From assembly GCA_964512325.1 (NCBI GenBank), contig CAZEGN010000001.1, positions 89,483 to 153,482 of the forward strand: 64,000 bases of DNA. Direction: 5' to 3'. A model generated the notes under the pieces. That model did no database searches. It worked only from the letters and a program-made list of their open reading frames with translations, and was not told the origin of the DNA. A program made the position numbers and the translations under genes. Each line of letters begins with the position of its first letter. The stretch's first letter is position 1. The DNA comes from an uncultured Candidatus Peribacteria bacterium (GTDB lineage: Bacteria; Patescibacteriota; Gracilibacteria; RBG-16-42-10). Positions 2,817 through 25,512 of this stretch are shown here, piece after piece.

Positions 2817-2819
2817 AAA

Positions 2820-5090: not shown

Positions 5091-5147
5091 ATTAGGTTGC
5101 ACAAATACATCATTTCTGTAAAATGTGTGCACTAACGTCTGTTCATC

Positions 5148-7265: not shown

Positions 7266-7269
7266 AATC

Positions 7270-8514: not shown

Positions 8515-8624
8515 AGTTTTCTTAAGTAATCATTTCATTATACATGGAATTTGGATGTTATGAATAGTGAGTTACTAGTTACACTTGCTGAATGAGGACA
8601 ATTATTGCCGCACTGCAATAAAAG

Positions 8625-9800
8625 TTACGTGCGATCCGTTTTGAATTGATGTAATTGTGGGGGAGAAAAGATTATCTTTACCAAAAAGTAGCAGAATTGA
8701 AGCAATCTCAGGTAAAAACCAAGCAGATACAAAGCTAAATTCAAAAAAGAAAAACATTGTCTCCAAACCAGATGAATAATCGCAGGTATAATGAACAGGA
8801 TGATAAACATTGGCCATGATCGCCATAACAAATAGGGTGAAATAGCAATAGCAATGAACTCTAAAATGAATACTATATACCAGCAAATTCCAGCAACAGA
8901 CTGCTTTAGGGTAAGCGACACATGATATCTTTGTGCTAATGAAAAGTAGCAAAAAACGCCATGCAGTATCGGAATTATTTGCCGAAAGGCATTGCCTAAA
9001 TTGGGTGGTGATTGAACTTGAGTAAAAAATGGCAGCGAGCGGTAAGCAACGCCTTTCCAGCGAAGCAAATACTGCAACGGAATATCATCAATTGGCTCAG
9101 GAAAAGCAGGCAGCTTGTCCCAAAGCTGCGGCGCTATCACCATAGTAGCGCCCATAGGATAATTCCAGCTAGCTGATGCTATCAATGAAGGAATATATTC
9201 CCACACGAAAACCCTTTCCAAATGGTGCAACATCAATGCTGCTACACTCTTACTATAAGCAGCAATCTTCGACACTGGCACAAAAGAGTAAATACAAGCA
9301 TTACCCTTGTTAAGGAAACTTCGATCTACTTGTATAAAGTCATCTATTGCGATACGCGCATCACAGTCAAAACAGACCACGTAAGGAAACTGTTGTTGCT
9401 GATACTTTGTGCGTACCCAGTGCAAACCAACATTTAACTGGGTCGCCTTCGTGCCCGTCATCTGGTGTGATTCTACTACATGAATACGCTCGCGAAAGCC
9501 TGAACCTTGCCTGTAAGCTTCAATATATTCAGCGGTATTATTGCTATCCCCTCTTTCTTTAATAGTAGTAATAAAAAGGAGCTGAATATTTTCTGAATAA
9601 GCAAGGAAAGATTCATAATATTGCAGCGTATCGCGTATAATCTTTTGCTCCCGAAAAACCGGAAAAAGAAACACATAGCCATGTAGCACTGCTTTTGAAG
9701 GAGATAAGGGCGACGCTGTCCTTCGGCGCCAGCGCCAATTGCTCAATGTGATTGAAACAATGAAGACACGATACAGCAATATAATCGCGACTAGGTACAT
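8625..9800 (-). CDS. family-2 glycosyltransferase with C-terminal TM helices
   Basis: N-terminal TM, GT-A like core with a VVCFDCDARI (DxD) motif, and several C-terminal hydrophobic helices. Confidence 0.6.
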   Translation of the reverse strand: MYLVAIILLYRVFIVSITLSNWRWRRRTASPLSPSKAVLHGYVFLFPVFREQKIIRDTLQYYESFLAYSENIQLLFITTIKERGDSNNTAEYIEAYRQGSGFRERIHVVESHQMTGTKATQLNVGLHWVRTKYQQQQFPYVVCFDCDARIAIDDFIQVDRSFLNKGNACIYSFVPVSKIAAYSKSVAALMLHHLERVFVWEYIPSLIASASWNYPMGATMVIAPQLWDKLPAFPEPIDDIPLQYLLRWKGVAYRSLPFFTQVQSPPNLGNAFRQIIPILHGVFCYFSLAQRYHVSLTLKQSVAGICWYIVFILEFIAIAISPYLLWRSWPMFIILFIIPAIIHLVWRQCFSFLNLALYLLGFYLRLLQFCYFLVKIIFSPPQLHQFKTDRT

Positions 9801-10648
9801 AGCGCTAATTGTGTTATTGCTTCATCTTTAAATGGATAGTCTTCTTGGTAGCCGCGGTACTCAAAGTATGACACAGCCGCCAGATACTCTATTCCCGTAA
9901 AGCAAAACAACTTCTCTCGCTCTAGGGCTTGTGGTTTACGCCCTAGGTAGGCTCCTAATAACTCAGTTGCCGCCAGAGCATCACTACCTAATACACGCCA
10001 GACAAACTTGGCCAAATCACTGTATACATCTCCTTGACCAGTGCGCTCAAAGTCGAGCAATGCAAAAGGTTGCTCTGCTGCTTGTGCATAAAGAATATTA
10101 CCGGCATTGAGGTCACCATGGATTAAGTCGGCTGACCTCACCTCAAATGAATCTAAAGCGTTCTTTATACGTGCAGACATCTTTAAAGCCAAACTGCACT
10201 CTTCAGCTTTTAAATGCCGTGCAGAATGAAAGTTCTGCTCATAAAGTGCCAGCATTTTTCTGATATTACTCTTTGTCATTGTTGGAACAGGGAGTTGATG
10301 GAATGACTTTAGTGTATTGGCGAAGACAGGCAATTCTTGATCTAGCAAAGTGGACTTTTTTAAAGGTTGACCGACGAGAAACGTCATCATTAGTACTAGC
10401 CTTTGATCATCAGCATGTATGAGTTTAGGCACTCGAAAATCCAGCTTATGACCGGCTAAAGTCTCAAGCCAGTACTTTTCAGCCTGATAATGCGCTGCTG
10501 TATCATATGCTTTGATGACCCCAGACACATCTTCAGGCAGAGTGACCTCAAGTAAGCAATTTTGAAATGTACGACGCACCGACTTGATTTTCGCAGCCGG
10601 AAATAGGTCACTAATATGTTCTACCGATAGCAATGGCATGATAGGCAA
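9791..10648 (-). CDS. APH/choline-kinase-fold phosphotransferase
   Basis: LIHGDLNAGNILY ... LLDFERTGQGDVYSDLAKF (Brenner/APH catalytic and DFE/DxD motifs). Confidence 0.7.
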   Translation of the reverse strand: MPIMPLLSVEHISDLFPAAKIKSVRRTFQNCLLEVTLPEDVSGVIKAYDTAAHYQAEKYWLETLAGHKLDFRVPKLIHADDQRLVLMMTFLVGQPLKKSTLLDQELPVFANTLKSFHQLPVPTMTKSNIRKMLALYEQNFHSARHLKAEECSLALKMSARIKNALDSFEVRSADLIHGDLNAGNILYAQAAEQPFALLDFERTGQGDVYSDLAKFVWRVLGSDALAATELLGAYLGRKPQALEREKLFCFTGIEYLAAVSYFEYRGYQEDYPFKDEAITQLALCT

Positions 10649-11204
10649 GACTGTTATCTAAAAAGTAATGTGTTAATGAGCAATGAGGAATTTTCATGAG
10701 CAAGACTTCACGATCAATATGGCGCATATAGGCAATTGCAGCCCGAATAACATTTTCATGAGAAACTATCCCGATATTTTGATAGGTGCTTTCTTTTGCT
10801 AATCTCTCTAAAAACTTGCCCACCCGAATCTTTACATCATCGAGACTTTCCCCTTCTTGATGATGAAAGTGATAAGGATCTTCACGATAGGCCGCGTCCA
10901 CCTCCGCAGGAATATCTTTAATATGAACATTAGTCATCAAACCGAAGTCTTGCTCTTTCAGCTCTTCACTCGTGATTAATGGAATACTTTTAGCTGCAGT
11001 TAAAATTTCTGCAGTTTCCTGAGCTCTGGTATTCGAGCTCACAAAAAGCACCTCTAAAGGTAGCATTTGTACCACTTTTGCCAGGCTCTTTGCCTCTGCT
11101 ATTCCCTTTTCTGTTAAAGGCGAGTCACTGCGACCACCCATTAGTTTTTGTTCAAGATTTGCTTTGGTTTCACCATGACGGAAAAAGTAAATGTTTTTGG
11201 TCAT
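10611..11204 (-). CDS. histidine phosphatase (phosphoglycerate-mutase-like) family protein
   Basis: IYFFRHGETKANL (RHG catalytic motif) and a later SHENVIRA. Confidence 0.75.
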   Translation of the reverse strand: MTKNIYFFRHGETKANLEQKLMGGRSDSPLTEKGIAEAKSLAKVVQMLPLEVLFVSSNTRAQETAEILTAAKSIPLITSEELKEQDFGLMTNVHIKDIPAEVDAAYREDPYHFHHQEGESLDDVKIRVGKFLERLAKESTYQNIGIVSHENVIRAAIAYMRHIDREVLLMKIPHCSLTHYFLDNSLAYHAIAIGRTY

Positions 11205-12778
11205 AAAAGTTGATTAAGTAAGTAAAGCCCTTGCAAGAAAAACTGTTTTTTTAACGCTTTGTTCTCATAACAACGAATCATGCTTAAAAAGCAAAGCGCC
11301 TCAATCCACATCACATCCGCGATTGGAATCCGGTATTGATCCAATAAAGGTTGAATATTTTTGACCGATTGCCACATGTCAGTCGGCAATTCAAAGGAGA
11401 ATGAGTTGTGACCGGTTTCTCGAAATTTCACCAAGCCTCGTTTTAAGTACTCATAGCCACCATGCAGTGAGTGCAGAAGTTTGGCTAAGTCATAACGGAT
11501 ATCACCATAAATTGAATATTGATTACCCCAAGTACCACGAGGATCGACGAAGAAAAAAACATGAGCATAAGGGTCATACAAAATATTGGCGAGGTGCAAG
11601 TCACCATGAATAACTCTAATCTTTGTTGTTTTAGCCAATTGTTTCGCCTTATTTAACAAAGTCTCATGTAGCTGTTCAAAGCCAATAACTTTTTTACCAT
11701 TAAGTAACCAATACTTAACTTCCGCAAGCTCTTTAGAATCTTGCTGCACCAAATCAATCACTCTTTGGCCATACATCCAATTCGTTTGAGCTTTACCAGC
11801 TAGCCAGTGTCCTGATTTGCTGTAGAAGTGCTTCTGCAATGAAGCCAGTAAACCTTGCCAAATATGACTTATTCCTTGATTTTGAATTCTTTCAAATAAC
11901 GCATAATAAGCCAATGACCGAACAGGAATATATCCTAGCTTTAGTTTGTGCGCCGTGCTTGATAACACTCGTGGCATTATTTCTGGCGCTTGAAAATGAC
12001 GATAAAAGTATTGTTCACGTTCAATATCACTGTGTTTTGTTTTTTTTATGACTACATTATCCTGACGAACAACCTGAACTTTCTTATAAGTAGAAAATGA
12101 TTCAGTGAGAGCATGCAGGTGTTTAACATTTCCTATATCAGACCAATCTTTTCTAAGCCTTACCTGAATCCCATCTAATTGATTATAAGCCAATAAAAGG
12201 GTACTTATCTCTACATTCTCTCTATTTAGGGTAGCAAGTGCCTGACGAAATAATTGGGCCCGCTTAAAAAAGTAGCATCCGCACAGGGCAGTACCTGCCT
12301 CTGCAGTAGTTGGTTTATCGACAATTGTATTTATTTCACCAGTCGCTGAAGAAGTTACTATCGCCCAAGCTGATGACTCTGCAACTTTTGCAGCGAGCAC
12401 AAAGCTCTGAACAAAATCCTTTTCTTTAAATGGCTTCGTAAATAATGTATCAGCCAAGTGTATACATATCTCGTCTACATGCTGTAACTCTTCACTCGAT
12501 TGGATAATAGCGGACAACAAGCCGCTGGCATTTTCTTGAACGATCAACTTAATTGGCCAGCATTGCTGATAAGTGTGACATATCGTATCGAAGCGTTCTT
12601 TCTCATGTGGACTCACAATGATAATCACCCCAGCCAATGATACTTGTTGATAAAGTGCTAATATTTTGGCAAGAATCGGCTCATCACCAAAAGGAACTAA
12701 CACTTTCGGGTAAAAGTTACTCAAAGGACTAAGCCGCGTTGCCAAGCCGGCAGTGGGAATAAGGAGGTATCTCTTCAT
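11201..12778 (-). CDS. fusion protein: N-terminal nucleotidyltransferase + C-terminal APH-fold kinase (LicC/LicA-like arrangement)
   Basis: N-terminus LIPTAGLATRLSPLSNFYPKVLVPF (G-x-G-T-R-L NTP-transferase loop). C-terminus VIHGDLHLANILYDP ... FFVDPRG ... GDIRYDLAKL (kinase). Confidence 0.65.
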   Translation of the reverse strand: MKRYLLIPTAGLATRLSPLSNFYPKVLVPFGDEPILAKILALYQQVSLAGVIIIVSPHEKERFDTICHTYQQCWPIKLIVQENASGLLSAIIQSSEELQHVDEICIHLADTLFTKPFKEKDFVQSFVLAAKVAESSAWAIVTSSATGEINTIVDKPTTAEAGTALCGCYFFKRAQLFRQALATLNRENVEISTLLLAYNQLDGIQVRLRKDWSDIGNVKHLHALTESFSTYKKVQVVRQDNVVIKKTKHSDIEREQYFYRHFQAPEIMPRVLSSTAHKLKLGYIPVRSLAYYALFERIQNQGISHIWQGLLASLQKHFYSKSGHWLAGKAQTNWMYGQRVIDLVQQDSKELAEVKYWLLNGKKVIGFEQLHETLLNKAKQLAKTTKIRVIHGDLHLANILYDPYAHVFFFVDPRGTWGNQYSIYGDIRYDLAKLLHSLHGGYEYLKRGLVKFRETGHNSFSFELPTDMWQSVKNIQPLLDQYRIPIADVMWIEALCFLSMIRCYENKALKKQFFLQGLYLLNQLL

Positions 12779-15006: not shown

Positions 15007-15083
15007 GTATCCGTAGCTCAGCTGGATAGAGCGCAACCCTGCGGAGGTTGAGGCCAGAGGTTCGAATCCTCTCGGATACACCA
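15007..15083 (+). tRNA. tRNA-Arg, anticodon GCG, CCA encoded
   Basis: Hand-folded cloverleaf. Acceptor GTATCCG/CGGATAC, D arm GCTC-AGCTGGATA-GAGC, anticodon arm CAACC-CTGCGGA-GGTTG (U33, GCG, G37), T arm AGAGG-TTCGAAT-CCTCT, A73, CCA. Confidence 0.9.
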
Positions 15084-16523
15084 ACGTTGACGATCGTTAC
15101 ATTTGAGTATCAAATCAAATGGTTCGTAGGCTTCGTATACTATTTTTTTGCCTTCGAGCCTGAGGTTCTGAAGTGTCAGTTTTACTATTTGCCTTTTCTG
15201 TTCGACTTCTGAACCCACGAATAGTTCGTGAGCATGCTTAGCAAGCCTTAATACGCATTCAGCTGTGGTGTAATAATTGTCCTCGGCGTTTTTTAAGAGA
15301 GCGAGTCTAGCCTCAATGTCGCTTATTTTATCCTGGAACTGTTGCTGGTAATTGTCATACTCGCTCTCAGTAATACGCCTGTCGAGTCTATCCATGTACA
15401 ACCTTTCGCGTCGACCCAAGTACAATTCTCTTTCTTTAAGCAGCTGATCACTCTGTTCTTTTCGATACTCCATCTTGCCCTTATGTAGATTTTTTAAACT
15501 ATTTGTCAGATCTTCAAGAACATCCTCAGGAAGCTGCATCCCTTTAAAAACTATCTCAAGCTGAGATGTGATATCTTCTTCACGTACCCATGGTGCGCCA
15601 TGTTTCCCATTGTATTGGGTGCAATGGTAGTAGACGTGGCCTTTATGCTTCTCTGGAGTAATAGCCAAGCCACAGTCAGCACAGCGCAATAAGCCACGGT
15701 AATAGTAGGTTTTACCGGCATACTTGAATGGCTTCTTACAAAAACCAGCCTTGACCTGCTGCACCATATCAAACAGCTCTTTAGAGATAATGGGTTTGTA
15801 CCTGTGTGGGTAGGGTTTATCATCCCACTTCATGACACCATAGTAGAATGAATTCTTCAAAATTTTATCTAAGTATCCTTTTGACCAGTCAATACCATAG
15901 TCTTTCTTCAACTTTGCCCTTAAGAGTTCCATCGAAAAAGCCTGGGATGCATATAATTGGTACACCTCCAGAATAACTTTACTAAAAAATGCATCATGCA
16001 CATTATCCTTTTGCCCATTTTCCGTAACAACACATTGATATCCACGAGGAGCTTTTGCAGGATACTCACCCTTTAATAACTTTTGCTGTTGCGACCTCTT
16101 CACGTTATCTCTGAGCTGTAAAACGTAGGATTTGGCAAACATTACGCCCATATCCCAACGCATAATGTCAGAACTGTTAGAATTTTTAGAAATAATGAGG
16201 CCTTCCCTGAGAAAGTGGATTTCAAGCTTGTCTCTTTTGCATAATTCATCAAGCACAGGACTCTCTTTGAAGCTTCTTTGCAAACGATCTATTGTCTCAA
16301 TAATCAAAGCAACTTTCTCATTACTATTTTCGATCTCAACAATTACATCTTCAAATCTTTTTCGTTCTTCCTTCGTAGAGCTCTCATCAATCTTATGCTC
16401 TTTTTTGATCTCAAGGCCTTTTGCCGAACAGTATTGACGCATTTTTGCAACCTGTGCAGGAATCGAATAGCCTTCCTGCATCTGTTCCTTCGTCGACACT
16501 CTAGCAAAGATAATGGCTTTCAT
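15018..16523 (-). CDS. large serine recombinase (integrase); last 66 nt antisense to tRNA-Arg
   Basis: MKAIIFARVSTKEQ resolvase-type catalytic Ser domain, recombinase domain, Zn-ribbon CADCGLAITPEKHKGHVYYHC and a coiled-coil tail. I prefer the Met at 16523 over the track start at 16595. The stop TGA (15018-15020) lies in the tRNA D arm. Confidence 0.85.
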   Translation of the reverse strand: MKAIIFARVSTKEQMQEGYSIPAQVAKMRQYCSAKGLEIKKEHKIDESSTKEERKRFEDVIVEIENSNEKVALIIETIDRLQRSFKESPVLDELCKRDKLEIHFLREGLIISKNSNSSDIMRWDMGVMFAKSYVLQLRDNVKRSQQQKLLKGEYPAKAPRGYQCVVTENGQKDNVHDAFFSKVILEVYQLYASQAFSMELLRAKLKKDYGIDWSKGYLDKILKNSFYYGVMKWDDKPYPHRYKPIISKELFDMVQQVKAGFCKKPFKYAGKTYYYRGLLRCADCGLAITPEKHKGHVYYHCTQYNGKHGAPWVREEDITSQLEIVFKGMQLPEDVLEDLTNSLKNLHKGKMEYRKEQSDQLLKERELYLGRRERLYMDRLDRRITESEYDNYQQQFQDKISDIEARLALLKNAEDNYYTTAECVLRLAKHAHELFVGSEVEQKRQIVKLTLQNLRLEGKKIVYEAYEPFDLILKCNDRQRWCIREDSNLWPQPPQGCALSS

Positions 16524-16527
16524 AAGA

Positions 16528-16704
16528 TTATTTAATACTATCGCGTTCAAGAAAAAGGTCGAGCTGTTCCTTACTGATGCGGTATTGCTTACCAACCTTG
16601 TAAGCCTTTAATTTACCAGCCTTTACCCATCGATACACAGTAAGATAAACCACTTTCAACATCGCTGCTACTTCATCAAGAGTGTAATATTCTATTTGCT
16701 GCAT
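16528..16704 (-). CDS. excisionase/MerR-type helix-turn-helix DNA-binding protein (58 aa)
   Basis: Own translation: MQQIEYYTLDEVAAMLKVVYLTVYRWVKAGKLKAYKVGKQYRISKEQLDLFLERDSIK, the typical 'excisionase family' HTH pattern. It is below the ORF-track size cut-off and sits 9 nt after the Rep-like stop and 4 nt before the recombinase ATG. Confidence 0.6.
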   Translation of the reverse strand: MQQIEYYTLDEVAAMLKVVYLTVYRWVKAGKLKAYKVGKQYRISKEQLDLFLERDSIK

Positions 16705-16712
16705 GATATGCT

Positions 16713-17873
16713 TTAGTTATCTTTATTTAACATCTTACCAAGGCTAGAATCAAGTTTAAGTGGAACAAAAGCTATAAGATGTTCACGAACCAGATCAAAG
16801 GTGTCCTTGCTTGTGGGTAAAGAAATGTCTCTGGCTTCACCCATCAAACGGTACCAACTTCGTGAGTGGCATCGTCCAAACATTAGGCGCAACTCACGAG
16901 TACTAACCCTATCAAGTGCCTGTTTAAGTCCGAAAATTTGTATGATACGACTAATACTCAACTTAGGGTTATGTATTATTAAATCAGCTAGAAAGTCTTT
17001 ATCTGATCTACTTTGATACTTTGCATAAAATGGTCTCTTCTTTTCCATTTCATCAAGAAAGTGAAGAAGTATGGCTTGAGACTTTTTCGAGTCAAACAGA
17101 TCTCGTAGTGTTAAATTGTTAGGCATATTAATCGTCTTCATCAACTGCTTTACCTTTGCTCTTTTGTTCAACCGTACTTCAATGCGCAACACTTCAAATG
17201 GTTTCTTGGTATCAAGCTGGTCGAACAACGATAATTGAATGCCATTGTCCTTTTCAATAGCTCTTTTACCACTTACCTTAGCCTTCTCAAGATCTTTACG
17301 TTTGTCATAAAAGGCTACCTCATAGGAATTACAATGCCATTTGAAGCTGGTCCCATCATTACGAAAATCCGTTTGGTTAACATCTACTGAAAGATTGATA
17401 TTAGCTTCTTTTATTTTCCCAATGTAATAATGCGGCGTAGTACCATCGGTTAAAACGATGTTCTTAGAGTAATGAATCGCTGACACGGGAGCACTTATTA
17501 AAGCATAAGACCAAACCAGAACTCCCATTTCTTTCAAACTCTTTTCTAGCAAATCTATCACTACAGCGAACTCATCATTTTGTAACTCATCAAAGTTGTT
17601 TCCAAATAGTAGCTTCGACAAAGACAACTCAATCCTGAGGGATGCCTCGCAATGCTTGCTCAAGTGATTGTAACGATTTGTAAGAGTAAGACGAGGCCTA
17701 TAAATCCCATTACGCAATTCAGTAGGAGTAGGATTTTGTTTAGAAACAATATAGCCTCTACCACCGAATCTGGACTCATCATCCAATATCCAGCGAGCTG
17801 AAGGTGTGAATTTGTCAGGTTCAAGAATAGTGTATTTCCCCTCGCTAAGCACCAATACTATCGTGTCTATCAT
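16713..17873 (-). CDS. replication-initiation-like protein (phage/plasmid gene II/X-type?)
   Basis: The N-terminal MIDTIVLVL... and LRIELSLSKLLFGNNFDEL resemble, from memory, phage/plasmid replication proteins. No HUH motif was identified. The context with the recombinase supports the call. Confidence 0.4.
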   Translation of the reverse strand: MIDTIVLVLSEGKYTILEPDKFTPSARWILDDESRFGGRGYIVSKQNPTPTELRNGIYRPRLTLTNRYNHLSKHCEASLRIELSLSKLLFGNNFDELQNDEFAVVIDLLEKSLKEMGVLVWSYALISAPVSAIHYSKNIVLTDGTTPHYYIGKIKEANINLSVDVNQTDFRNDGTSFKWHCNSYEVAFYDKRKDLEKAKVSGKRAIEKDNGIQLSLFDQLDTKKPFEVLRIEVRLNKRAKVKQLMKTINMPNNLTLRDLFDSKKSQAILLHFLDEMEKKRPFYAKYQSRSDKDFLADLIIHNPKLSISRIIQIFGLKQALDRVSTRELRLMFGRCHSRSWYRLMGEARDISLPTSKDTFDLVREHLIAFVPLKLDSSLGKMLNKDN

Positions 17874-18138
17874 ACAGCTTAGTTACTTTTTCAAATTTAG
17901 TGATAATGAGCTGCTCAACTAGCTTGGCCATGCTTCTGTTAATTGGATAAAAGATGGCCAAGCTATTGTCTGCCACTTTGCGTGTGGGATAGGTTAAACG
18001 GTATCCACCATGCGGCCTGGTATAAATTCCGATTGAACCACAATAAAAAGCCGAACCAAAAACAAAACTGGCAAAGCCAACTAATCCTAACTTGGGTTTA
18101 ATTGGTATTACTTGAATCTCTGTGATCATCTGCTGCAT
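17845..18138 (-). CDS. SpoVG-like small nucleic-acid-binding protein
   Basis: ITEIQVIPIKPKLGLVGFASFVFGSAFYCGSIGIYTRPHGGYRLTYPTRK...IFYPINRSMAKLVEQLIITKF follows the SpoVG pattern (beta strands, then 'P..R' and 'hP.n...r..i'). It overlaps the Rep-like start by 29 nt. Confidence 0.4.
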   Translation of the reverse strand: MQQMITEIQVIPIKPKLGLVGFASFVFGSAFYCGSIGIYTRPHGGYRLTYPTRKVADNSLAIFYPINRSMAKLVEQLIITKFEKVTKLYDRHDSIGA

Positions 18139-18341
18139 AAGGCTGAGTTAGTTTTAATTTACGATCGACTTCAATAAGAATAGAAAAGAAAGCCGTCAGA
18201 CGATCTAGAGCTTCAACTGACAACTTCTTTTCCGGCAATGTTTTCTTTACGTCATCATCACTCACTGGCATTCTCTAAAGTCGCCGTGAGATTAGAGAAA
18301 CCAGAGAGGTACCCAGTGGGACCCGTTGTGGTACCACTAAG

Positions 18342-19505
18342 TTAAGGCCAATATATTGGATTCACTTTAACTGAGCTTTTAGTAAAGATTAGGAATTGCA
18401 CCACACCCGATTTGGCAGCAATCCTTCGGACAATCGCTTTACAGACCTCATAGAACTTATCCCTCTCTTCTTTTCCAAACTTCTCAACCTTTATACCTTC
18501 TATTAGCTCGTTGAGTTCATCGTAAAACCATTCCTGGTGTACTGCGTTATCGTCCTTCAGCACAATATTCAACAGATCCCTAGTCTTTGAGGGCCTAAAA
18601 GCAAGACGACACCCATCCACGATTAGCTCTCCCAACTCCTTTTCGTAAATCCATTTGATCTTTTTTCCGGTTACGGGAGAAACTTCAACATCCACACCCT
18701 GCATACTCGACAAATAGTGTTTAGTGTAAAGGTGAACTCTTTCTAGGCAAGTGCGGTGTTCTTCCATTTCGTTCATATCCTGCGCAGAGAAACTACTATT
18801 GATACCATTATCTCCCATCAAATGCTGTATTTTCTTGAAAGCTGAATGGGTAGCTAATACCATGAGTAGCTTTTCACTTTTAATGTACTCGGCACTCGCT
18901 ATTTCGTAATCCCTATACAACGCACAAAAACCGGTCAATTTATCCCAAGCAAACCATATCTCAAACGACTGTAAGCGTTCAATCCTACTGCTTTCAGCCT
19001 TCCACTTATTATAAGCTGGCTCAAACTGCAGATCCTCTATCTGCTTTGTATTTGTAATAGTAGCGAATTGCGTTACAAATTTATCAGCATCTCGACATGT
19101 AGATCCTAGCAATAAATGAAATGTTCTACCTAAAACAAAGAACTTGGTCTCAGTCACGGCTGCCGAAGTAAGAATTCTATTCTCTTCATGAGCATAAAAC
19201 TCTGCCAGAGGAAACTTTATTTCTTTGAGCTCAGCATTATTCTGTTTTATAAACTCCACTATTGCCTTAAATACAGATTCCATTTCCGTATTAGCAGCAT
19301 GAGCGAGTTGATTCAACAAAGCTAAACCATGCTCTTTGTGTTCGTGAATTGCCATGACAATAGGCCCAAGCACATCGTTTTCATCGTAAAGACTTATATA
19401 CTCATACATTGCTTGAAAAAAATCCGTAGGCTTGCTAGCAGCCCTTGCCCTAAGATAGATGCTTTCCAGTTTTTCTAACAATAGTTCTACTTTTCCCATA
19501 ATCAT
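18342..19505 (-). CDS. hypothetical protein, 387 aa, no recognisable domain
   Basis: Long uninterrupted ORF on the same strand as the element genes. No motif was recognised. Confidence 0.5.
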   Translation of the reverse strand: MIMGKVELLLEKLESIYLRARAASKPTDFFQAMYEYISLYDENDVLGPIVMAIHEHKEHGLALLNQLAHAANTEMESVFKAIVEFIKQNNAELKEIKFPLAEFYAHEENRILTSAAVTETKFFVLGRTFHLLLGSTCRDADKFVTQFATITNTKQIEDLQFEPAYNKWKAESSRIERLQSFEIWFAWDKLTGFCALYRDYEIASAEYIKSEKLLMVLATHSAFKKIQHLMGDNGINSSFSAQDMNEMEEHRTCLERVHLYTKHYLSSMQGVDVEVSPVTGKKIKWIYEKELGELIVDGCRLAFRPSKTRDLLNIVLKDDNAVHQEWFYDELNELIEGIKVEKFGKEERDKFYEVCKAIVRRIAAKSGVVQFLIFTKSSVKVNPIYWP

Positions 19506-19586
19506 TACATCTTCAAAGCACTCGACATTAGCATGAAAGAAAAATGAAAATGATGCAAGAATATCTACAGTTGTAGACTCTAGTGA

Positions 19587-20234
19587 TTACTTCAATAGAT
19601 TCTTGATTTTACTACATGTAACTTTACGTTCAATAAAACTTATTATTTTCAGATAAAGGACTCTAAGTTCGTCTGCAATATCAGCCATATATATATGGTA
19701 CCCATCAATTCTTAACTCATGGGCATCCGAGGACAAATTTAAGACGGGCGAATTCCCTACGTGACCTTCAAATCGTGTTTCAGCATGCTCAACAGCAGCA
19801 CGCATACTTGCTAATAATGCAATATTATTTCCTGTAATTGAAGGAAATACCGCCCGCATCTTATTTATGCGGTTTAGCGCATTTAGAAGATTTTCAAGGT
19901 GATCAATGATAGTAGCAGTATATATTGGTTGAACACCATTAATTAGAACCGATCTAAACTTAGGCTTAAACCTTCGACTAAATCGTCTATTAATTTGTGA
20001 GAATGTAAGTCTAGATTCTTTTACCTCTTCAAGAACAACCTCCCGAACCATTGTGTATTCCCACACCGCTTTATCAATAAGTCGCACTAAAATTACCAGC
20101 CCTTTCTGCTCTTTTGTGGATAATGCTTGATTGAGACCACAGAAAGACGCTGCAAAGTAGCAGCCCGTTGCTGAAGGTATATCATTTTCAATACTCGGCA
20201 TTTTACAATTTTGCATTCTCATAGTGTATTTCAA
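19587..20234 (-). CDS. hypothetical protein, 215 aa, no recognisable domain
   Basis: The ORF starts 8 nt after the tyrS stop on the same strand. No motif was recognised and the start codon is uncertain (several Mets in the first 12 codons). Confidence 0.5.
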   Translation of the reverse strand: MKYTMRMQNCKMPSIENDIPSATGCYFAASFCGLNQALSTKEQKGLVILVRLIDKAVWEYTMVREVVLEEVKESRLTFSQINRRFSRRFKPKFRSVLINGVQPIYTATIIDHLENLLNALNRINKMRAVFPSITGNNIALLASMRAAVEHAETRFEGHVGNSPVLNLSSDAHELRIDGYHIYMADIADELRVLYLKIISFIERKVTCSKIKNLLK

Positions 20235-20242: not shown

Positions 20243-21376
20243 CTAGGCTCTAGTCACAAGACATGCTTCTAATTCATCTAGCATCTTTCTCCCTTCACCT
20301 TTACTAAAGTGCTCTCTCACTGGAGCTAAAAGTTCAATCAGGTATTCAGCCACAAATTGTTTCAGATCTTTAGGATGAATCATTCCATCCTTGAACAGCT
20401 GTACTAATTCTGGAAAAGAGCTAATGTTGAGATTACCACCAAACTTTTCATCTCGTTGGATAGTAACACTTGATTCACGAGAGAAGATGAGGTGCTCAAC
20501 CCAATCTAATACGGGGTTGAATTCAGTTTCCTTTTCTGGACAGAAAGCTTTCATGACTTTTCTTTGTATTTCTTCTGGCTCGTCATGAATAAAGACTGCA
20601 CTGTCTGGTTTCGATTTACTCATCTTCATGGACGACCAAATGTCTTGCCTATCCATATCAGTAGGAATAGGCCACACACTTGGTTTTTGTAATCCGAGGA
20701 GGAGATGATGATGAACAGCTACAGGTTTTACTATATTTCCCCCTAATCGTAGGGGACTGATAGTCAGCTTGTCAGCAACATCTCGTGCAATCACCTGTGC
20801 CTTTCTCTGATCCATACCTGCATGAGCTATGTGAATTCCTTGCACAAAAATATCTGCTACCTGCATAGCTGGGTACATGAGCTTAGCAAAATCTACTTCA
20901 TCACCTTCTTTTCTTCCAAGAATTGTAATACTGCGCTTCATACGCGAAAGCGTCGTGTGTTTACCTACTTCAACTACTGTATCCCAGTATTCAGGATGTT
21001 TGCTATAGAGTTCAGAACCAAGGACAAAAGTAAGCTTATCTGGATTCCCACCAAGACATTTAAAAGCGATTTTGAGTCCTTCCTGAAAGTAGCCGATAGC
21101 AATTTTCTTGATCTTAGCTCTGTCTCCCCCTAGTTTATCATTAATCCAAGTATGCCAGTCCGCCAAAAAGACGTGACAGTTTACACCAGCATCTTGGAAG
21201 TCTTTCACTTTTTGCATACACACCAGACCTGTCCCTAGATGAATCTTTCCAGAGATCTCGAAACCAATGTAATGGTTGAGCGGCTGTGACGACTCTAGCA
21301 TTTTCTTCAGGTCTTCCTCTGTCATGATATCTTCTGTGCGCGCTTTGATACGAGCAAGTTGGTCTTTGGCAATCAT
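20243..21376 (-). CDS. tyrS: tyrosyl-tRNA synthetase, archaeal/eukaryal type (no bacterial S4-like C-terminal domain)
   Basis: A class I aaRS with HYIGFEISGKIHLGTG (HIGH region), FLADWHTWINDKLGGD, YPAMQVADIF..IAHAGMDQRKA and a literal KMSKS. The pattern is collinear with my recollection of Methanocaldococcus jannaschii TyrRS (AYIGFEPSGKIHLGHY, LLADLHAYLN, YPIMQVNDIH..GGMEQRK, KMSSSK, KFGGD, LHPMDLKNAVAE). Confidence 0.85.
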   Translation of the reverse strand: MIAKDQLARIKARTEDIMTEEDLKKMLESSQPLNHYIGFEISGKIHLGTGLVCMQKVKDFQDAGVNCHVFLADWHTWINDKLGGDRAKIKKIAIGYFQEGLKIAFKCLGGNPDKLTFVLGSELYSKHPEYWDTVVEVGKHTTLSRMKRSITILGRKEGDEVDFAKLMYPAMQVADIFVQGIHIAHAGMDQRKAQVIARDVADKLTISPLRLGGNIVKPVAVHHHLLLGLQKPSVWPIPTDMDRQDIWSSMKMSKSKPDSAVFIHDEPEEIQRKVMKAFCPEKETEFNPVLDWVEHLIFSRESSVTIQRDEKFGGNLNISSFPELVQLFKDGMIHPKDLKQFVAEYLIELLAPVREHFSKGEGRKMLDELEACLVTRA

Positions 21377-21389: not shown

Positions 21390-21465
21390 TGGTCCAGCGG
21401 GTAAGATTTGAACTTACATAACCTGGTTTTACAGACCAGTGCATAAACCACTCTGCCACCGCTGG
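21390..21465 (-). tRNA. tRNA-Tyr, anticodon GUA, C1-G72, 5-nt variable loop, CCA encoded
   Basis: Hand fold of the - strand: CCAGCGG TG GCAG AGTGGTTT ATGC A CTGGT CTGTAAA ACCAG GTTAT GTAAG TTCAAAT CTTAC CCGCTGG A CCA (76 nt). Confidence 0.9.
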
Positions 21466-21470: not shown

Positions 21471-21512
21471 CAAAAAAAGCCACCCTCAACATAAAGATTA
21501 TGCAAGGGCGGC
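21471..21512 (-). terminator. intrinsic terminator of the T-box leader
   Basis: - strand A-GCCGCCCU ... AGGGUGGC-U stem (extendable via GCAUAA/UUAUGU) followed by UUUUUUU. It ends about 6 nt before the tRNA-Tyr 5' end. Confidence 0.75.
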
Positions 21513-21784
21513 TATATAATTTCATAATTAGACCGCGGTACCACCTTACTTTAAATAAACTATTACTAGCTTATTACTTTTCATCCTCAATCAAGGACTT
21601 ACGCTGTAACGGGCGATCCCGTTGAACTCTACAAGCCGAAGCTTTCGTGTTCACCTTTCCGAAGGAGTATTTCCTACTCTCATGATACGATAGCCTCGCA
21701 ACGACCGGCTATTTCGAGTGTCACCCATGATTTTGTACTGCATCCTTCTTCACTAAGTTTAGGAAGACCGAATTTTCAAAGAGC
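21471..21784 (-). promoter_or_regulatory. T-box riboswitch leader (presumably Tyr-specific)
   Basis: AGUAAGGUGGUACCGCGGUC (21550-21531) matches the T-box consensus AANNNGGGUGGNACCGCG. The antiterminator is GUAAGG/CCUUGC + 7-nt bulge UGGUACC + GCGGU/GCCGC, and its 3' strand is the 5' arm of the terminator. UGGU is complementary to the ACCA end (A73) of the adjacent tRNA-Tyr. An AUGAGAGUA motif (21683-21675) resembles the Stem I K-turn/specifier 5' side. Confidence 0.75.
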
Positions 21785-21790: not shown

Positions 21791-21818
21791 ACTATAGCAT
21801 CTTTTTACAGAATGTCCA
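21791..21818 (-). promoter_or_regulatory. promoter of the T-box/tRNA-Tyr/tyrS transcript
   Basis: - strand TGGACA (21818-21813) - 16 nt - TGcTATAGT (extended -10, 21799-21791). Confidence 0.5.
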
Positions 21819-22095: not shown

Positions 22096-23781
22096 ATGAA
22101 AACTGTTTACCTGGTACGGAAATTGATGCTACTCAGCATCGCGTTGGTATCATTAATCGGTCCTGCACAGGCAAATGCAGATACATATGTGCGTGGTTAC
22201 TATCGCAGTAATGGGACATACGTACAGCCCCACTATCGATCTAGTCCTGATAGCTCTGTGACAAACAATTATAGCTATTGTGGTAATACAAATCCTTATA
22301 CAGGCACTACTGGCACACAAGGTTGTGGAAGTGGAAGCAGTAGCTATAGTCTCCCTAGTTACACCGCACCAAGTTATGTTACTCCAACGCCTATCAGTTA
22401 CCCCTCTATACAAGTTCCATCATATACACCATACACCTATACCCCACTTGCAATTCCTACCCATACACCTTATGTATATACTCCTCCTGCAGCTCCCACA
22501 TACGAACCTCCCATTGTAGCACCGCCATCAAATAATACAGAATCACATGATACTACCAATAATACTTATGTTACAGCTCAATTAGTAGCAGACTTAGGAA
22601 ATAACCATCTACTTGTTCTTGATGGTCAGGAAGCATTCTTTGATATCACCTATCATGGATGTCTTAGTACTAACTTCAATAAGGGTGAGTCATTACATTT
22701 TAACCAAGCACAAGGTTACTTTCTTGCTGGCAATGTAACTGCTTATGATCGCTGCTCTATAGGTGAAGCCAAGAAGCTTAACCTGTTTAAGTATGCTCTT
22801 TCCGATGTCATTTTAGCTTCTAGCCAGGTTGTCCTAGAAGATGCAAACGGTCAAAAGTGGATTAGCACGTATTACGAGGGCTGTTCCAGTTTGGCTCTGT
22901 ATAAGGGGCATGACGTAGTAGTAAACGTAGACGAGAATGGCTCTGATGATCGCATAATTTTGGTACAAGAAAAAGAAACATGCCTTTTTAGCAAAGCGCA
23001 ATTGTACAATCCTGAATTGGCTACTACAGATATTCCTTTACCAACAACATCGTCAGAGTTTTTAGACGTACATGATGACACCCCCTTTGCTCCGGCTATC
23101 CGGTTTTTGCAAAACAGAGGGATTGTCGCTGGTCTTTCTGATGGGACATTCCATCCCAATAACTTTCTCACCAGAGCTGAATTACTTAAGATGGTTCTTC
23201 TGGCCAAACAAGATAACGGTATTGGTGAAAGCTACAGTAGCAGTTGCTTTTCTGACGTTGATGCGACCACTTGGTATGCAAGATTTGTATGCTATGCCAA
23301 GGAAAATCAGATTATTGGGGGGTATGATGATGGGACATTTAAGCCAGGACAACCAGTATCATACGTAGAAGCCCTGAAAATCACTCTAAATATACTTGGT
23401 CACACACCAAGTACTACAACTAATCCCTGGTATGACGCTTTTCTTACCAAGACAGACGAAGTCAAAGCTGGAGTGGCAGATACTAAGCTTAATGATCCGC
23501 TAACCCGAGGAAAAATGGCAGAGCTAATCACTAGAATTATTAAGTACGATGAAGAAGGACCAAATAGTAGCTATCTTACAGGTTACCAACCACTTAAATC
23601 TTCTGTATTACAACCCATAGTTTCTGCAGCTCCAGAAAGTGTATCGACATCTAAAGTGCCATCTAGTACTTACTACACACCTGAAAGTGCTACAGCACTC
23701 TGTAATGATGGCACATACAGTTTCAGTGCAAATCGACAAGGTAGTTGTTCACACCATGATGGGGTTGCTCAATGGTTATAA
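22096..23781 (+). CDS. secreted protein: YxRxNGTYVxPHYR motif, Tyr/Thr/Pro-rich spacer, two SLH domains, C-terminal DUF3761-like Cys motif
   Basis: Signal peptide. YVRGYYRSNGTYVQPHYRSSPD. SLH units FLDVHDDTPFAPAIRFLQNRGIVAGLSDGTFHPNNFLTRAELLKM and FSDVDATTWYARFVCYAKENQIIGGYDDGTFKP. Tail CNDGTYSFSANRQGSCSHHDGVAQWL. Confidence 0.65.
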   Translation: MKTVYLVRKLMLLSIALVSLIGPAQANADTYVRGYYRSNGTYVQPHYRSSPDSSVTNNYSYCGNTNPYTGTTGTQGCGSGSSSYSLPSYTAPSYVTPTPISYPSIQVPSYTPYTYTPLAIPTHTPYVYTPPAAPTYEPPIVAPPSNNTESHDTTNNTYVTAQLVADLGNNHLLVLDGQEAFFDITYHGCLSTNFNKGESLHFNQAQGYFLAGNVTAYDRCSIGEAKKLNLFKYALSDVILASSQVVLEDANGQKWISTYYEGCSSLALYKGHDVVVNVDENGSDDRIILVQEKETCLFSKAQLYNPELATTDIPLPTTSSEFLDVHDDTPFAPAIRFLQNRGIVAGLSDGTFHPNNFLTRAELLKMVLLAKQDNGIGESYSSSCFSDVDATTWYARFVCYAKENQIIGGYDDGTFKPGQPVSYVEALKITLNILGHTPSTTTNPWYDAFLTKTDEVKAGVADTKLNDPLTRGKMAELITRIIKYDEEGPNSSYLTGYQPLKSSVLQPIVSAAPESVSTSKVPSSTYYTPESATALCNDGTYSFSANRQGSCSHHDGVAQWL

Positions 23782-23793
23782 ACGACAGCCCTT

Positions 23794-24300
23794 ATGACCA
23801 TGCTTCAAAATCTAAAGATTATAGGCATCACTATAGTTTCTTCAATATCAGGACTGGCAGGAGTTTTGTATGGCATGAATTTGAACGCACAATTGAATGA
23901 CTTAAAAAGCAATTTCAACGCTACAGCCTCCGGGTTAAGTGCCACTCTTACAGACACCAAATCTATTACACGCGTATCAGAAGCAAATATAATCATTCAG
24001 CCAACATTCCCTGATGGCGAAGTCGAAGTGTACATTAATGACCGATTGATCAAAACTGTATTGGTGAATGCAGGTGTAATTAATACAACGATACCGCTTA
24101 TGAGTGGCGTTAACAGAATTAGCATTAACCAAAAGCTAAGTAAGTTATGGATGAGTACTGAAACTCAAGAACAAAAGGTAAAGAACATTTTGTACGCACC
24201 ATCGAGTGCTTCGGCTATTTGTAGCGACTTGAGCATTAGTTACAGCGCTAGCCGAAGAGGCACTTGTTCGCATCATGGTGGAGTTGCTGAATGGTTATAG
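23794..24300 (+). CDS. membrane-anchored protein with Ig-like module and DUF3761-like tail
   Basis: N-terminal TM. The PDGEVEVYINDRLIK module is paralogous to the next ORF. Tail CSDLSISYSASRRGTCSHHGGVAEWL. Confidence 0.55.
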   Translation: MTMLQNLKIIGITIVSSISGLAGVLYGMNLNAQLNDLKSNFNATASGLSATLTDTKSITRVSEANIIIQPTFPDGEVEVYINDRLIKTVLVNAGVINTTIPLMSGVNRISINQKLSKLWMSTETQEQKVKNILYAPSSASAICSDLSISYSASRRGTCSHHGGVAEWL

Positions 24301-24318
24301 TTTTACAAAGAACACTTT

Positions 24319-25512
24319 ATGATTACAAAAGATGAAATAAAAGTTGCTGCTATTACTTCTACTATAGCAATCGTCATACTTCTTGCCTTTTTCTACGGTA
24401 TTAATCAGTACACAAAGTTCCAAGATGTGAAACAAAAGGTGCTATCCCAAACAGGGTTCAATGCATTTATTAACGGTCCACACAATACTAGTAATGCTAA
24501 TATCACCCTCGCTTTTTCAGCAGTTGTACCTGATGGCGAAGTTATTGTACGTGTAGATAATAAGGAGATGATCAGAGAACCAATAACAACTAGTATCGGT
24601 AATCTCACACTGAATTTAAAAAAAGAAGGGAATTATACTATTCAAGCGCACCAACAGCTCCATCAATGGGGTTACGTGCTAGAGAGTCCATTACTCTCAT
24701 TAGGTAACATTACATACGATCATACTGCTCCTACCGGTACCCTAAAAAAGCTTTCTTCCCTACCTAAAGAAACCAACAGTAATACTGTTTACGTTTCACT
24801 TGCACTGGAGGCTAGCAGTATAGAGAAGGATGTAACTTTAGCTATTAAAAGCAATGATCATACGATTGATACAGTAAGTGCAAATACCAACGGTGTATTT
24901 GAAAATGATATGAATCTGTATGAGGGGGAGAACTCCATCGCTTTTGTTCTAAGAGATGGAGCAGGTAATGAGTCTCTTCCCTTGGCGACTGCTATGATCA
25001 CTGTTGATGGGACACCTCCAATGCTAGATACTAATTCTCAATACTCTTGCAGCGCGCAGACAGAATTTGCTTGTGTGTGGTTCAATGGAGAATTGAGAGG
25101 TCCGTTATATGGGACACTATGGGCACCAATTCTAGGCCGATACAAAAACATCAAGTCACTCAAAATAAATGGAAAAGACATTACCCTAAAGGCTGACGGC
25201 AGTATTAGCCAACGTATTGCCTTATATGTAAAACCAGGTGAAAACAAATATGAAGTACGTGCGATGGATAAGATGGGCAATCAAAATACAAGTTACTTAT
25301 CCCTATATTGGAGCTCAGAGAATGATAGTAATTCGAGTAGTGATGACTATTGTACTTTCAACTGTAGCGGTCATGAGGCAGGTTACAACTGGGCTGAAGA
25401 TAATGACATTAGTAACATATATGACTGTGACGGGAATTCAGATTCTTTCAATGAAGGCTGCCAGGAGTATGTAGAAGAGAATTATCCTGATGAGGGAGAA
25501 TTTGACTATTAG
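24319..25512 (+). CDS. membrane-anchored protein with Ig-like repeats and Cys-rich C-terminal motif
   Basis: N-terminal TM, PDGEVIVRVDNKEMI module and bacterial-Ig-like segments (DHTAPTG..., VDGTPPML). Tail CTFNCSGHEAGYNWAEDNDISNIYDCDGNSDSFNEGCQEY. Confidence 0.55.
   Translation: MITKDEIKVAAITSTIAIVILLAFFYGINQYTKFQDVKQKVLSQTGFNAFINGPHNTSNANITLAFSAVVPDGEVIVRVDNKEMIREPITTSIGNLTLNLKKEGNYTIQAHQQLHQWGYVLESPLLSLGNITYDHTAPTGTLKKLSSLPKETNSNTVYVSLALEASSIEKDVTLAIKSNDHTIDTVSANTNGVFENDMNLYEGENSIAFVLRDGAGNESLPLATAMITVDGTPPMLDTNSQYSCSAQTEFACVWFNGELRGPLYGTLWAPILGRYKNIKSLKINGKDITLKADGSISQRIALYVKPGENKYEVRAMDKMGNQNTSYLSLYWSSENDSNSSSDDYCTFNCSGHEAGYNWAEDNDISNIYDCDGNSDSFNEGCQEYVEENYPDEGEFDY

Follow-up and report, generated by a model that had tools for sequence, protein, structure and literature searches.

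A tyrosine T-box leader ahead of a C1-G72 tRNA-Tyr gene and an archaeal-type tyrosyl-tRNA synthetase gene in a bacterium of the Candidate Phyla Radiation

Introduction

How can a bacterium follow the archaeal rule for tyrosine identity, and what controls the genes that it needs to do so? This question is raised by a stretch of 64,000 nt (contig CAZEGN010000001.1, positions 89,483 to 153,482; hereafter the window) from an uncultured bacterium of the Candidate Phyla Radiation (CPR). It carries a tRNA-Tyr gene whose first acceptor pair is C1-G72, followed by a gene for tyrosyl-tRNA synthetase (TyrRS). An earlier sequence-only reading had pointed out the archaeal/eukaryal identity of this tRNA and had suggested that tRNA and synthetase were transferred together or co-evolved. 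Here we describe the locus as what is very probably one co-regulated minus-strand unit, consisting of a promoter, a tyrosine-specific T-box riboswitch, the C1-G72 class I tRNA-Tyr, a 13-nt spacer and an archaeal-type TyrRS gene. All parts of this operon are present in the window, and the same architecture is repeated in independent CPR contigs.

Archaeal tyrosine identity in a CPR bacterium is itself not new. Mukai et al. (2017; PMC5370408) found archaea/eukarya-type TyrRS in Parcubacteria, Microgenomates, Dojkabacteria (WS6) and Katanobacteria (WWE3) alongside a C1-G72 tRNA-Tyr that has a variable arm in some cases and lacks it in others, and concluded that many of these tRNAs descend from bacterial tRNA-Tyr and that such genomes rely on the archaeal-type Tyr system. 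Their paper mentions neither a T-box or riboswitch, nor a tRNA-Tyr/TyrRS operon, nor the Abawaca/Gracili/Peregrini group. The phenomenon noticed in the window is real, but it is one further lineage added to those four phyla rather than a first observation. In the open-access literature searched we found no description of a T-box controlling a tRNA gene, none of T-boxes in CPR/Patescibacteria, and nothing relevant on a T-box combined with archaeal TyrRS or with Saccharibacteria. T-boxes have been described as regulators of synthetase, biosynthesis and transporter genes.

Results

A tRNA-Tyr of archaeal identity is coupled to an archaeal-type TyrRS

The tRNA-Tyr gene lies on the minus strand, which the sequence-only reading had left unspecified, and reads 5′ to 3′ CCAGCGGUGGCAGAGUGGUUUAUGCACUGGUCUGUAAAACCAGGUUAUGUAAGUUCAAAUCUUACCCGCUGGACCA. 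It scored 64.5 bits with the Rfam tRNA model, compared to a gathering score of 29, and divides into the segments CCAGCGG-UG-GCAG-AGUGGUUUA-UGC-A-CUGGU-CUGUAAA-ACCAG-GUUAU-GUAAG-UUCAAAU-CUUAC-CCGCUGG-A-CCA. C1 is at position 21465, G72 at 21394, the discriminator A73 at 21393 and the GUA anticodon at 21432..21430; the variable loop is GUUAU (5 nt) and the T loop UUCAAAU. The gene therefore carries the whole archaeal/eukaryal set of C1-G72, A73, GUA and a short variable loop. Since it is 76 nt long, a long variable arm does not fit, and no alternative register with G1-C72 is possible, as the flanking bases are A(-1) and A73. ARAGORN, Rfam and a per-base check thus agree with the details first read from the letters (C1-G72, A73, GUA, GUUAU, the T loop and the ACCA end), and the alternative fold that could have overturned them does not exist. 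The same tRNA is found with 100% identity in independent assemblies (loci L001 and L082-L084; the loci compared in this study are numbered with the prefix L).

The adjacent TyrRS that had been named beside the tRNA is real. Its 377-aa open reading frame (ORF) scored 423 bits with NCBIfam NF006330, the archaeal-type TyrRS equivalog (cutoff 220), and 110.4 with the general tyrS model TIGR00234, under the cutoff of 113.8. Pfam found only tRNA-synt_1b (residues 31-350), which covers the class Ic catalytic and anticodon-binding region, and neither an S4 nor a SYY C-terminal domain. In contrast, the bacterial-type TyrRS of locus L086 has both S4 and SYY_C-terminal domains. The best match among solved structures was PDB 2cyc (449 bits). 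In the TyrRS of M. jannaschii (MjaTyrRS) the pair C1-G72 is read by Arg132, Arg174 and Lys175 (PMC1934993). When the window enzyme was aligned by BLASTP to 1J1U (the M. jannaschii query was 100% identical to chain A), these residues corresponded to R148, R191 and K192, and the tyrosine pocket residues Tyr32 and Asp158 to Y36 and D175, indicating that both the C1-G72-reading residues and the tyrosine pocket are kept. The proposal of an archaeal/eukaryal tRNA identity in a bacterial genome is therefore supported, and this identity is coupled to an S4-less archaeal-type TyrRS that retains the residues to read it. No Shine-Dalgarno sequence was recognisable in the 13-nt spacer before tyrS; in related loci the gap from tRNA-Tyr to TyrRS measures 5-64 nt.

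A tyrosine-specific T-box leader lies directly upstream of the tRNA

The sequence-only reading was right about the adjacency of tRNA and TyrRS and missed the most unusual feature of the locus, a T-box leader directly upstream of the tRNA (Table 1). In a permissive Rfam scan, RF00230 matched positions 21762..21501 over the complete model (1-219) with 71.4 bits (E = 1.8e-13 over the 64-kb window), and a profile built from 20 leaders (see below) gave 135.9 bits. When aligned to the Rfam consensus 'GAAauuca', the triplet UAC falls on the specifier position. This codon complements the GUA anticodon of the tRNA that follows and fits the TyrRS gene too; the specifier loop further carries an AGUA motif upstream of GAA-A-UAC-U. 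The T-box sequence is AAGGUGGUACCGCGG with the bulge UGGUACC, in which the N of UGGN is a U, complementary to the discriminator A73.

The canonical bulged antiterminator is the minimum-free-energy fold of its segment (-13.6 kcal/mol). The terminator folds with -20.6 kcal/mol (z = -5.16), and 0 of 200 shuffled sequences folded equally well. Its 5′ strand is the antiterminator 3′ strand CCGCCCUU, so the two folds are mutually exclusive. An automated terminator scan had missed this hairpin because its loop is longer than 8 nt, and it was recovered by folding. Stem I on its own showed no thermodynamic signal (z = +0.19), which is what one expects of an irregular helix rich in motifs, and its support comes from the covariance model and motif conservation instead of folding energy. 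From the specifier, the UGGN bulge and the exclusive folds, we read the window copy as a probable diverged member of the RF00230 family.

The ~335 bp of non-coding DNA upstream of the tRNA are 87% identical to those of L082, whose TyrRS is 92% identical to that of the window. Although the whole shared block has 87% identity, the antiterminator helices, the bulge and the terminator are identical in both. A putative promoter with 10 of 12 consensus matches, the best in the region, was found ~29 nt before the T-box match begins.

Table 1. Features of the tyrosine locus and its downstream neighbourhood in the window
Feature	Position	Strand	Details and basis
Putative promoter	21818..21791	minus	-35 UGGACA (21818..21813), 16-nt spacer, TG-extended -10 UAUAGU (21796..21791); promoter-like site from consensus scan
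T-box leader, tyrosine-specific riboswitch	21762..21472	minus	Stem I with K-turn, specifier loop, stems II, IIA/B and III, antiterminator, terminator; Rfam RF00230
Specifier triplet UAC (Tyr codon)	21669..21667	minus	In motif GAA-A-UAC-U (21673..21666)
Antiterminator	21548..21503	minus	A1 UAAGG/CCUUG, 7-nt bulge UGGUACC (21543..21537), A2 GCGG/CCGC; folding and covariation
Intrinsic terminator	21513..21472	minus	Hairpin AGCCGCCCUUGCAUAA...UUAUGUUGAGGGUGGCU and U7 tract; ends 6 nt before tRNA 5′ end; folding
tRNA-Tyr(GUA)	21465..21390	minus	76 nt, class I, C1-G72, A73, CCA encoded; ARAGORN and Rfam
Spacer from CCA end to TyrRS start codon	21389..21377	minus	13 nt, AUAAUUUUAUCCU; read from sequence
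Archaeal-type TyrRS gene (tyrS)	21376..20243	minus	377 aa; NF006330; S4-like C-terminal domain absent
Four ORFans	16713..20234		Between recombinase and tyrS
Large serine recombinase	16595..15018	minus	Resolvase, Recombinase and Zn_ribbon_recom domains; phrog_95 integrase, 187 bits
tRNA-Arg(GCG)	15007..15083	plus	Overlapped by recombinase 3′ end

The leader precedes tRNA-Tyr genes in other contigs

Metagenomes were scanned with a pattern that linked the T-box signature to the anticodon loop and T loop of tRNA-Tyr, and 22 contigs were returned. A full T-box leader with an overlapping terminator and a U-run, and a tRNA-Tyr 4-30 nt further on, was present in 21 of them. The 22nd, L085, was a chance match without terminator inside a tRNA array (Ga0315288_10002750, positions 2491-7359), which holds ~20 tRNA genes in ~5 kb, including unusually long tRNA-Cys and tRNA-Met calls (89 nt). 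Strict T-box motif matches in L041, L066, L068, L079 and L080, among 84 loci, fell in GC-rich coding sequence and were also judged to be chance matches.

The Rfam cutoff of 93 was exceeded by the leaders of L102 (109.8 bits), L106 (108.4), L092 (102.2), L093 (100.1) and L091 (98.3), and two of these five precede C1-G72 tRNAs. The motif GAA-N-UAC-Y was kept wherever stem I had been captured. GGUGGUACC was invariant in the 20 aligned leaders, and all their tRNAs have A73. Each of the 20 distinct leaders forms a bulged antiterminator (-5 to -13 kcal/mol) and a stronger overlapping terminator (-20 to -38 kcal/mol) with a U-run behind it. In the antiterminator alignment 96.8% of the cells were paired and 6 of the 10 pairs had changed on both sides. 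None of 500 shuffled alignments reached this score and slid controls paired at 32-56%; the signal covers both helices.

The profile also found a leader in L007, a GTDB representative metagenome-assembled genome (MAG) outside its training set. This leader (Rfam 87.9 bits) has a UAC specifier in the same GAA-N-UAC-Y context. Behind it come a class I C1-G72 tRNA-Tyr and, after a gap of 21 nt, an archaeal-type TyrRS gene. None of the remaining TyrRS loci has a leader, with the exception of L060 (JAFGVS010000046.1, positions 8325-9640, in a bin labelled Alphaproteobacteria). Here a T-box with a nearly deleted stem I and a GGUGGUACCACG box (Rfam 38.5 bits, E ~1e-6) stands directly before an archaeal-type TyrRS gene, with no tRNA gene in between. 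It resembles the short translational T-boxes of Actinobacteria. A further unusual contig, L096 (Ga0208958_1018373, positions 1114-1507), has a T-box leader before a 73-nt class I tRNA-Tyr with A1-U72, a pair that fits neither the bacterial nor the archaeal rule. This leader scored 37.9 bits with Rfam and 124 bits with the profile, in whose training alignment it was included, and an ORF of more than 330 aa without Pfam match follows the tRNA in place of a recognisable TyrRS.

The operon occurs in a bacterial and an archaeal-type version

The T-box contigs differ in the tRNA that follows the leader. In 14 contigs it is a bacterial tRNA-Tyr of 83-88 nt with G1-C72 and a long arm, and in 11 of these a bacterial TyrRS (S4 and SYY_C) lies downstream, usually past one to three genes and before recG. 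The relatives of this bacterial-type enzyme are named solely as Patescibacteria lineages. In six other T-box contigs the tRNA-Tyr is class I with C1-G72, and five of the six have an archaeal-type TyrRS downstream. The enzyme gene directly follows the tRNA in L099, as it does in the window and L007; in the others of these five a ~300-aa ORF and a YbaK-like editing-domain protein lie between the two.

The ~300-aa family is shared by both versions of the operon (bacterial in L086 and L097; archaeal in L087, L091 and L105). It has no Pfam match and stands directly after the T-box-controlled tRNA-Tyr (positions 7656-8558 of oriented L086); the next gene in the archaeal version codes for a YbaK-like tRNA_edit protein of 153 aa. 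A BLASTP comparison of the ~300-aa protein with TyrRS was not significant (E = 0.065) and showed a single VF(I/L)AD-H motif. In its position the protein is reminiscent of the 'ORF1' in TrpRS-A operons that Mukai et al. (2017) described.

The two versions come particularly close in one pair of contigs: at equal operon position, the C1-G72 class I tRNA of L087 is 84% identical in its core to the G1-C72 long-arm tRNA of L086. Such paired operon versions suggest that the enzyme and the identity of the tRNA were exchanged while the riboswitch stayed in place. In a rough neighbour-joining tree of the enzymes, drawn without support values, the T-box-linked archaeal-type enzymes appear in at least three places, which suggests that T-box operons were converted to the archaeal-type version more than once.

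Both TyrRS types occurred together in only one of the fetched loci, L032 (CAYXDU010000002.1, positions 8496-11935, in a bin labelled Woesearchaeota). Three class Ic synthetase genes stand there in tandem, coding for a bacterial-type TyrRS with S4 (399 aa), an archaeal-type TyrRS (374 aa) and a tRNA-synt_1b protein (353 aa), and neither a tRNA nor a T-box was detected in their vicinity. L032 may be a case of coexistence or transition between two Tyr systems, or a mislabelled bin.

The tRNA is most likely of bacterial descent

The window TyrRS belongs to a clade common to CPR bacteria and DPANN archaea; its relatives at 60-70% identity number thousands, in bins labelled CPR or DPANN. The tRNA was compared by core identity, that is, with the variable region removed. 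It is 87% identical to that of L002, 78-80% to other CPR C1-G72 tRNAs including long-arm forms, and 71% to the G1-C72 long-arm tRNA of L086. M. jannaschii tRNA-Tyr, the one archaeal comparator, and E. coli tyrT were further off, with 59% and 55%, respectively. With 59% to M. jannaschii against 78-87% to CPR tRNAs, the window tRNA would be a bacterial tRNA-Tyr of switched identity, or one passed between CPR bacteria. The likeness to M. jannaschii tRNA-Tyr that had been remarked on is therefore superficial. As for the suggested co-transfer or co-evolution, the physical coupling of tRNA and TyrRS holds, while transfer of the tRNA from an archaeon is disfavoured by core identities that speak for CPR descent. 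Most likely, the window tRNA is of bacterial (CPR) ancestry and was remodelled, and is not archaeal.

A survey of tRNA-Tyr in relatives, which the sequence-only reading had proposed, is in line with this. In 25 fetched loci a tRNA-Tyr lies near the enzyme gene, usually 5-110 nt upstream, and all 25 have C1-G72 and A73; eight carry a variable arm of 12-15 nt, the others being class I. Loci with long-arm and with class I tRNAs are interleaved within the CPR clade of the enzyme tree, suggesting repeated loss of the variable arm after the S4-bearing enzyme had disappeared. In ~20 DPANN loci, on the other hand, no adjacent tRNA-Tyr was found, and none within 10 kb of the TyrRS gene.

A recurrent arrangement was observed in T-box-less CPR contigs (L002, L004-L006, L008, L011, L014, L017 and L043), where tRNA-Thr(UGU), tRNA-Tyr, the TyrRS gene, tRNA-Thr(GGU) and tRNA-Trp follow one another. 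Here the archaeal-type TyrRS gene seems to have landed beside a resident tRNA-Tyr. The Thr-Tyr-Thr-Trp tRNA cluster of CPR resembles the bacterial thrU-tyrU-glyT-thrT cluster.

Among one-genome-per-species contigs, archaeal-type TyrRS was also found in Chloroflexota, Dormibacterota and other bacteria. The loci (L026, L037, L038, L041, L051, L056, L066 and L081 among them) come from Dormibacterota, Chloroflexota (including complete chromosomes of ~4.3 Mb), Aggregatilineales and 'Angelobacter' MAGs, often with an adjacent class I C1-G72 tRNA-Tyr, and no T-box was found at them. This occurrence outside CPR exceeds the distribution given in PMC5370408.

Host and surroundings of the locus

The host of the operon is a bacterium of the CPR. 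Bacterial equivalog models match each of the rpoB, rpoC, fusA, tuf, miaA, miaB and serS genes of the window. For RpoB, identity to a protein of a Candidatus Abawacabacteria bacterium (candidate phylum Abawacaibacteriota according to NCBI) reaches 89%. The next RpoB relatives, at 82-83%, include Abawacabacteria RBG_16_42_10 and are followed by those of Gracilibacteria and Peregrinibacteria.

Past the end of tyrS come four ORFans and the gene of a large serine recombinase, which runs into a tRNA-Arg gene (Table 1). For the four ORFs, PHROGs and Pfam gave no family, with one weak sub-threshold match to SpoVG, and a search for att-type tRNA-Arg repeats and for direct or inverted repeats bracketing 15-22 kb returned short chance matches only. 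The segment 15007-20234 is probably a small integrated element that abuts the operon.

The L001 locus is identical to the window, an identical copy of the locus stands in the Logan sample SRR16481186, and L082-84 share 87% nucleotide identity over leader, tRNA and tyrS. With L082 the shared part comprises ~1.6 kb (leader, tRNA and tyrS) and 170 bp further upstream, and the flanks differ; homology stops 5 nt past the tyrS stop codon and, on the other side, runs beyond the promoter. From these boundaries, the insertion-like DNA appears to flank the operon and not to contain it. L082 itself (JGI 3300055001, Ga0556162_0004155) carries a ~3.8-kb block (positions 5802-9576) between the T-box promoter region and the neighbour gene. 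With genes for HEPN_AbiU2 and an AAA_15/AAA_21/SMC_N ATPase beside small ORFs, this block has the look of a defence island; the conserved segments that it splits stand ~100 bp apart in the window (21800 and 21902).

Beside the T-box promoter, the window holds a cluster of secreted or surface proteins (22096-25512) with SLH and DUF3761 domains, with DUF3761 alone, and with Ig-like and glucodextranase-B-like domains. Further away on the minus strand, an ORF of 1944 aa (41183-35349) has no NCBIfam match.

Discussion

A putative tRNA-autoregulated operon and how it may have changed identity

In T-box regulation the specifier pairs with the tRNA anticodon, and UGGN pairs with the NCCA end (PMC7778990). 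In the window, an uncharged tRNA-Tyr from the cellular pool would bind the nascent leader through its GUA anticodon at the UAC specifier and through its free ACCA end at the UGGU of the bulge. With the tRNA bound, the antiterminator (-13.6 kcal/mol) would prevail although the terminator is the stronger fold (-20.6 kcal/mol), and RNA polymerase would enter the tRNA gene and tyrS. With charged tRNA-Tyr the contact at the acceptor end would be blocked and the polymerase would stop 6 nt short of the tRNA. After read-through, RNase P and 3′ processing would free the tRNA from the transcript and leave an almost leaderless tyrS message with at most 13 nt ahead of the start codon. The riboswitch would thus bring its own ligand tRNA and the charging enzyme of this tRNA under joint control.

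T-boxes touch the anticodon, the elbow and the NCCA end of the tRNA, and contact neither pair 1-72 nor the variable arm. Because it ignores these two elements, the leader would be blind to what distinguishes bacterial from archaeal tyrosine identity. We therefore envisage, for the operon series as a whole, an ancestral operon with a T-box before a bacterial tRNA-Tyr and a bacterial tyrS, into which an archaeal-type TyrRS was swapped, while G1-C72 changed to C1-G72, the long arm was lost and the regulator was kept. It is quite possible, if short of an even chance, that CPR T-boxes directly gate their own ligand tRNA together with the synthetase and that this operon served as a repeated landing site for the swap from the bacterial to the archaeal-type Tyr system.

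If this is true, the CPR contigs present, as a natural series, intermediate stages in the change of a tRNA identity from one domain to another, and the locus is a tRNA-autoregulated circuit in which uncharged tRNA-Tyr raises both tRNA-Tyr and its charging enzyme. A T-box whose first gene is its own ligand tRNA would be a different kind of circuit, with positive feedback of the ligand balanced by the co-produced synthetase, and its presence in CPR would give this riboswitch a wider known range. How an organism changes a tRNA identity rule and survives becomes testable with the paired operon versions. The series suggests an order of events, with a regulatory element that is neutral to the switch, and natural Tyr pairs with a matched regulator could be of use in engineering orthogonal Tyr pairs in bacteria.

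Several observations weigh against the interpretation of the locus as such a T-box operon. The 71.4 bits of the window T-box are under the curated Rfam gathering cutoff of 93. The AG-bulge and distal-loop motifs of stem I are degenerate (UCGAAA for AGAGA), which may weaken docking of the tRNA elbow, and the base 3′ of the specifier is U or C where a purine is usual. A tRNA-Tyr gene behind a terminator that needs tRNA-Tyr to be overcome looks risky, and basal read-through would be required, especially if the gene is the sole copy; a second tRNA-Tyr gene possibly exists elsewhere in the genome, beyond the 64-kb window. Among the 25 CPR loci with tRNA-Tyr and archaeal TyrRS, only the window lineage and L007 have a T-box. 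As most of these loci do without it, the riboswitch is not required for the identity switch. Finally, the window tRNA is nearer to T-box-less CPR tRNAs (87% to L002) than to T-box-linked bacterial ones (65-71%), so the tRNA-TyrRS pair of the window lineage may be a cassette from another CPR bacterium instead of having evolved in place.

Alternative explanations

The weaknesses of stem I, the sub-threshold Rfam score and the lack of a purine after the specifier could also be taken to mean that the T-box is a decaying relic and that tRNA and TyrRS are effectively constitutive, expressed by read-through or from an unrecognised promoter. We regard this as improbable: the specifier, the bulge, both antiterminator helices and the strong terminator with its U7 tract are intact, and the latter elements have stayed identical in L082 against the 87% of the surrounding block. 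Moreover, the gap of 6 nt between U-tract and tRNA leaves no room for a promoter. A different explanation makes the locus an auxiliary or mobile second Tyr pair, carried on an integrase-bounded island by the tRNA-Arg, with a canonical tRNA-Tyr/TyrS elsewhere doing the housekeeping. The serine recombinase and the four ORFans (15018..20234) directly downstream of tyrS and abutting tRNA-Arg fit such an island, as do the limited homology and differing flanks of L082 despite a 92%-identical TyrRS, and only 64 kb of the genome are visible. However, the L082 homology ends 5 nt past tyrS and continues beyond the promoter, which seems to place the insertion-like DNA beside the operon, and no att-like repeat bracketing the tRNA and TyrRS was found. 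The T-box operon with bacterial TyrRS in other CPR contigs suggests a housekeeping locus, the two TyrRS types meet in none of the fetched loci but L032, and the CPR genomes of Mukai et al. (2017) rely on their archaeal-type system. A mobile auxiliary pair is for these reasons unlikely.

It is very unlikely that the tRNA gene itself is archaeal and came with the TyrRS from a DPANN archaeon. Such an origin is suggested by C1-G72, A73, the class I form, the acceptor CCAGCGG, which resembles archaeal CCGGCGG, and by a TyrRS clade that mixes CPR and DPANN at 60-63% identity. Yet a tRNA-Tyr stands beside TyrRS in 0 of ~20 DPANN loci and in most of the bacterial ones. The tRNA core is 59% identical to M. 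jannaschii (the sole archaeal comparator) against 78-87% to CPR tRNAs, among them C1-G72 long-arm forms, and such long-arm forms are interspersed with class I forms inside the CPR clade of the enzyme tree. In addition, the position of the gene after a bacteria-specific riboswitch is the one that canonical bacterial tRNA-Tyr genes take in other contigs. An artefact of assembly or binning, with archaeal DNA joined to a bacterial contig, deserves mention because CPR and DPANN are found together and bins are known to cross-contaminate (Mukai et al. 2017). This is extremely improbable for a single contiguous sequence in which TyrRS follows the tRNA after 13 nt and the tRNA follows a bacteria-specific riboswitch after 6 nt, all the more so since these junctions recur in independent assemblies of different samples (L001, L082-84 and L007). 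A T-box operon with a remodelled bacterial tRNA and an archaeal-type enzyme is hence the reading that we prefer.

Comparison with known systems

The closest known counterparts are the CPR systems of Mukai et al. (2017), which share with the window a CPR host, a C1-G72 tRNA-Tyr, an S4-less archaeal-type TyrRS related to DPANN enzymes and, often, descent of the tRNA from a bacterial one. Unlike them, the window lineage is Abawacabacteria-like, its pair would be placed in one T-box unit, and this unit has bacterial-type operon counterparts in CPR contigs.

On the side of regulation, the tyrS T-box leader of B. subtilis (Grundy & Henkin 1993; RF00230) has the same UAC specifier, the pairing of UGGU with ACCA, a bulged antiterminator that competes with a terminator, and TyrRS as its target. 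In contrast, the first regulated gene in the window would be the ligand tRNA, the synthetase is archaeal-type and the host belongs to CPR and not to Firmicutes. The ligand is a class I C1-G72 tRNA instead of a long-arm G1-C72 tRNA, a pyrimidine follows the specifier, and the distal motifs of stem I are degenerate.

A functional parallel is the orthogonal pair of M. jannaschii, and E. coli strains exist in which the native Tyr pair was replaced by an archaeal/eukaryal pair (refs 17 and 18 of PMC5370408). There a C1-G72-reading archaeal-type TyrRS works within bacterial translation machinery, as it would in the window, where the reader residues are kept. The window pair, unlike the engineered one, is natural, and its tRNA would be a remodelled bacterial tRNA rather than an import. 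Its enzyme, too, is less like the 306-aa M. jannaschii TyrRS (36% identity) than like the 375-aa protein in PDB 2cyc (449 bits).

Finally, a CPR operon for another amino acid is built in a similar way: a tRNA gene of archaeal identity comes first, an archaeal-type class Ic synthetase gene follows, and the operon is apparently regulated by amino-acid status. There, however, a protein repressor was proposed in the role that the T-box would play in the window, and the archaeal-type pairs coexist with a canonical bacterial pair.

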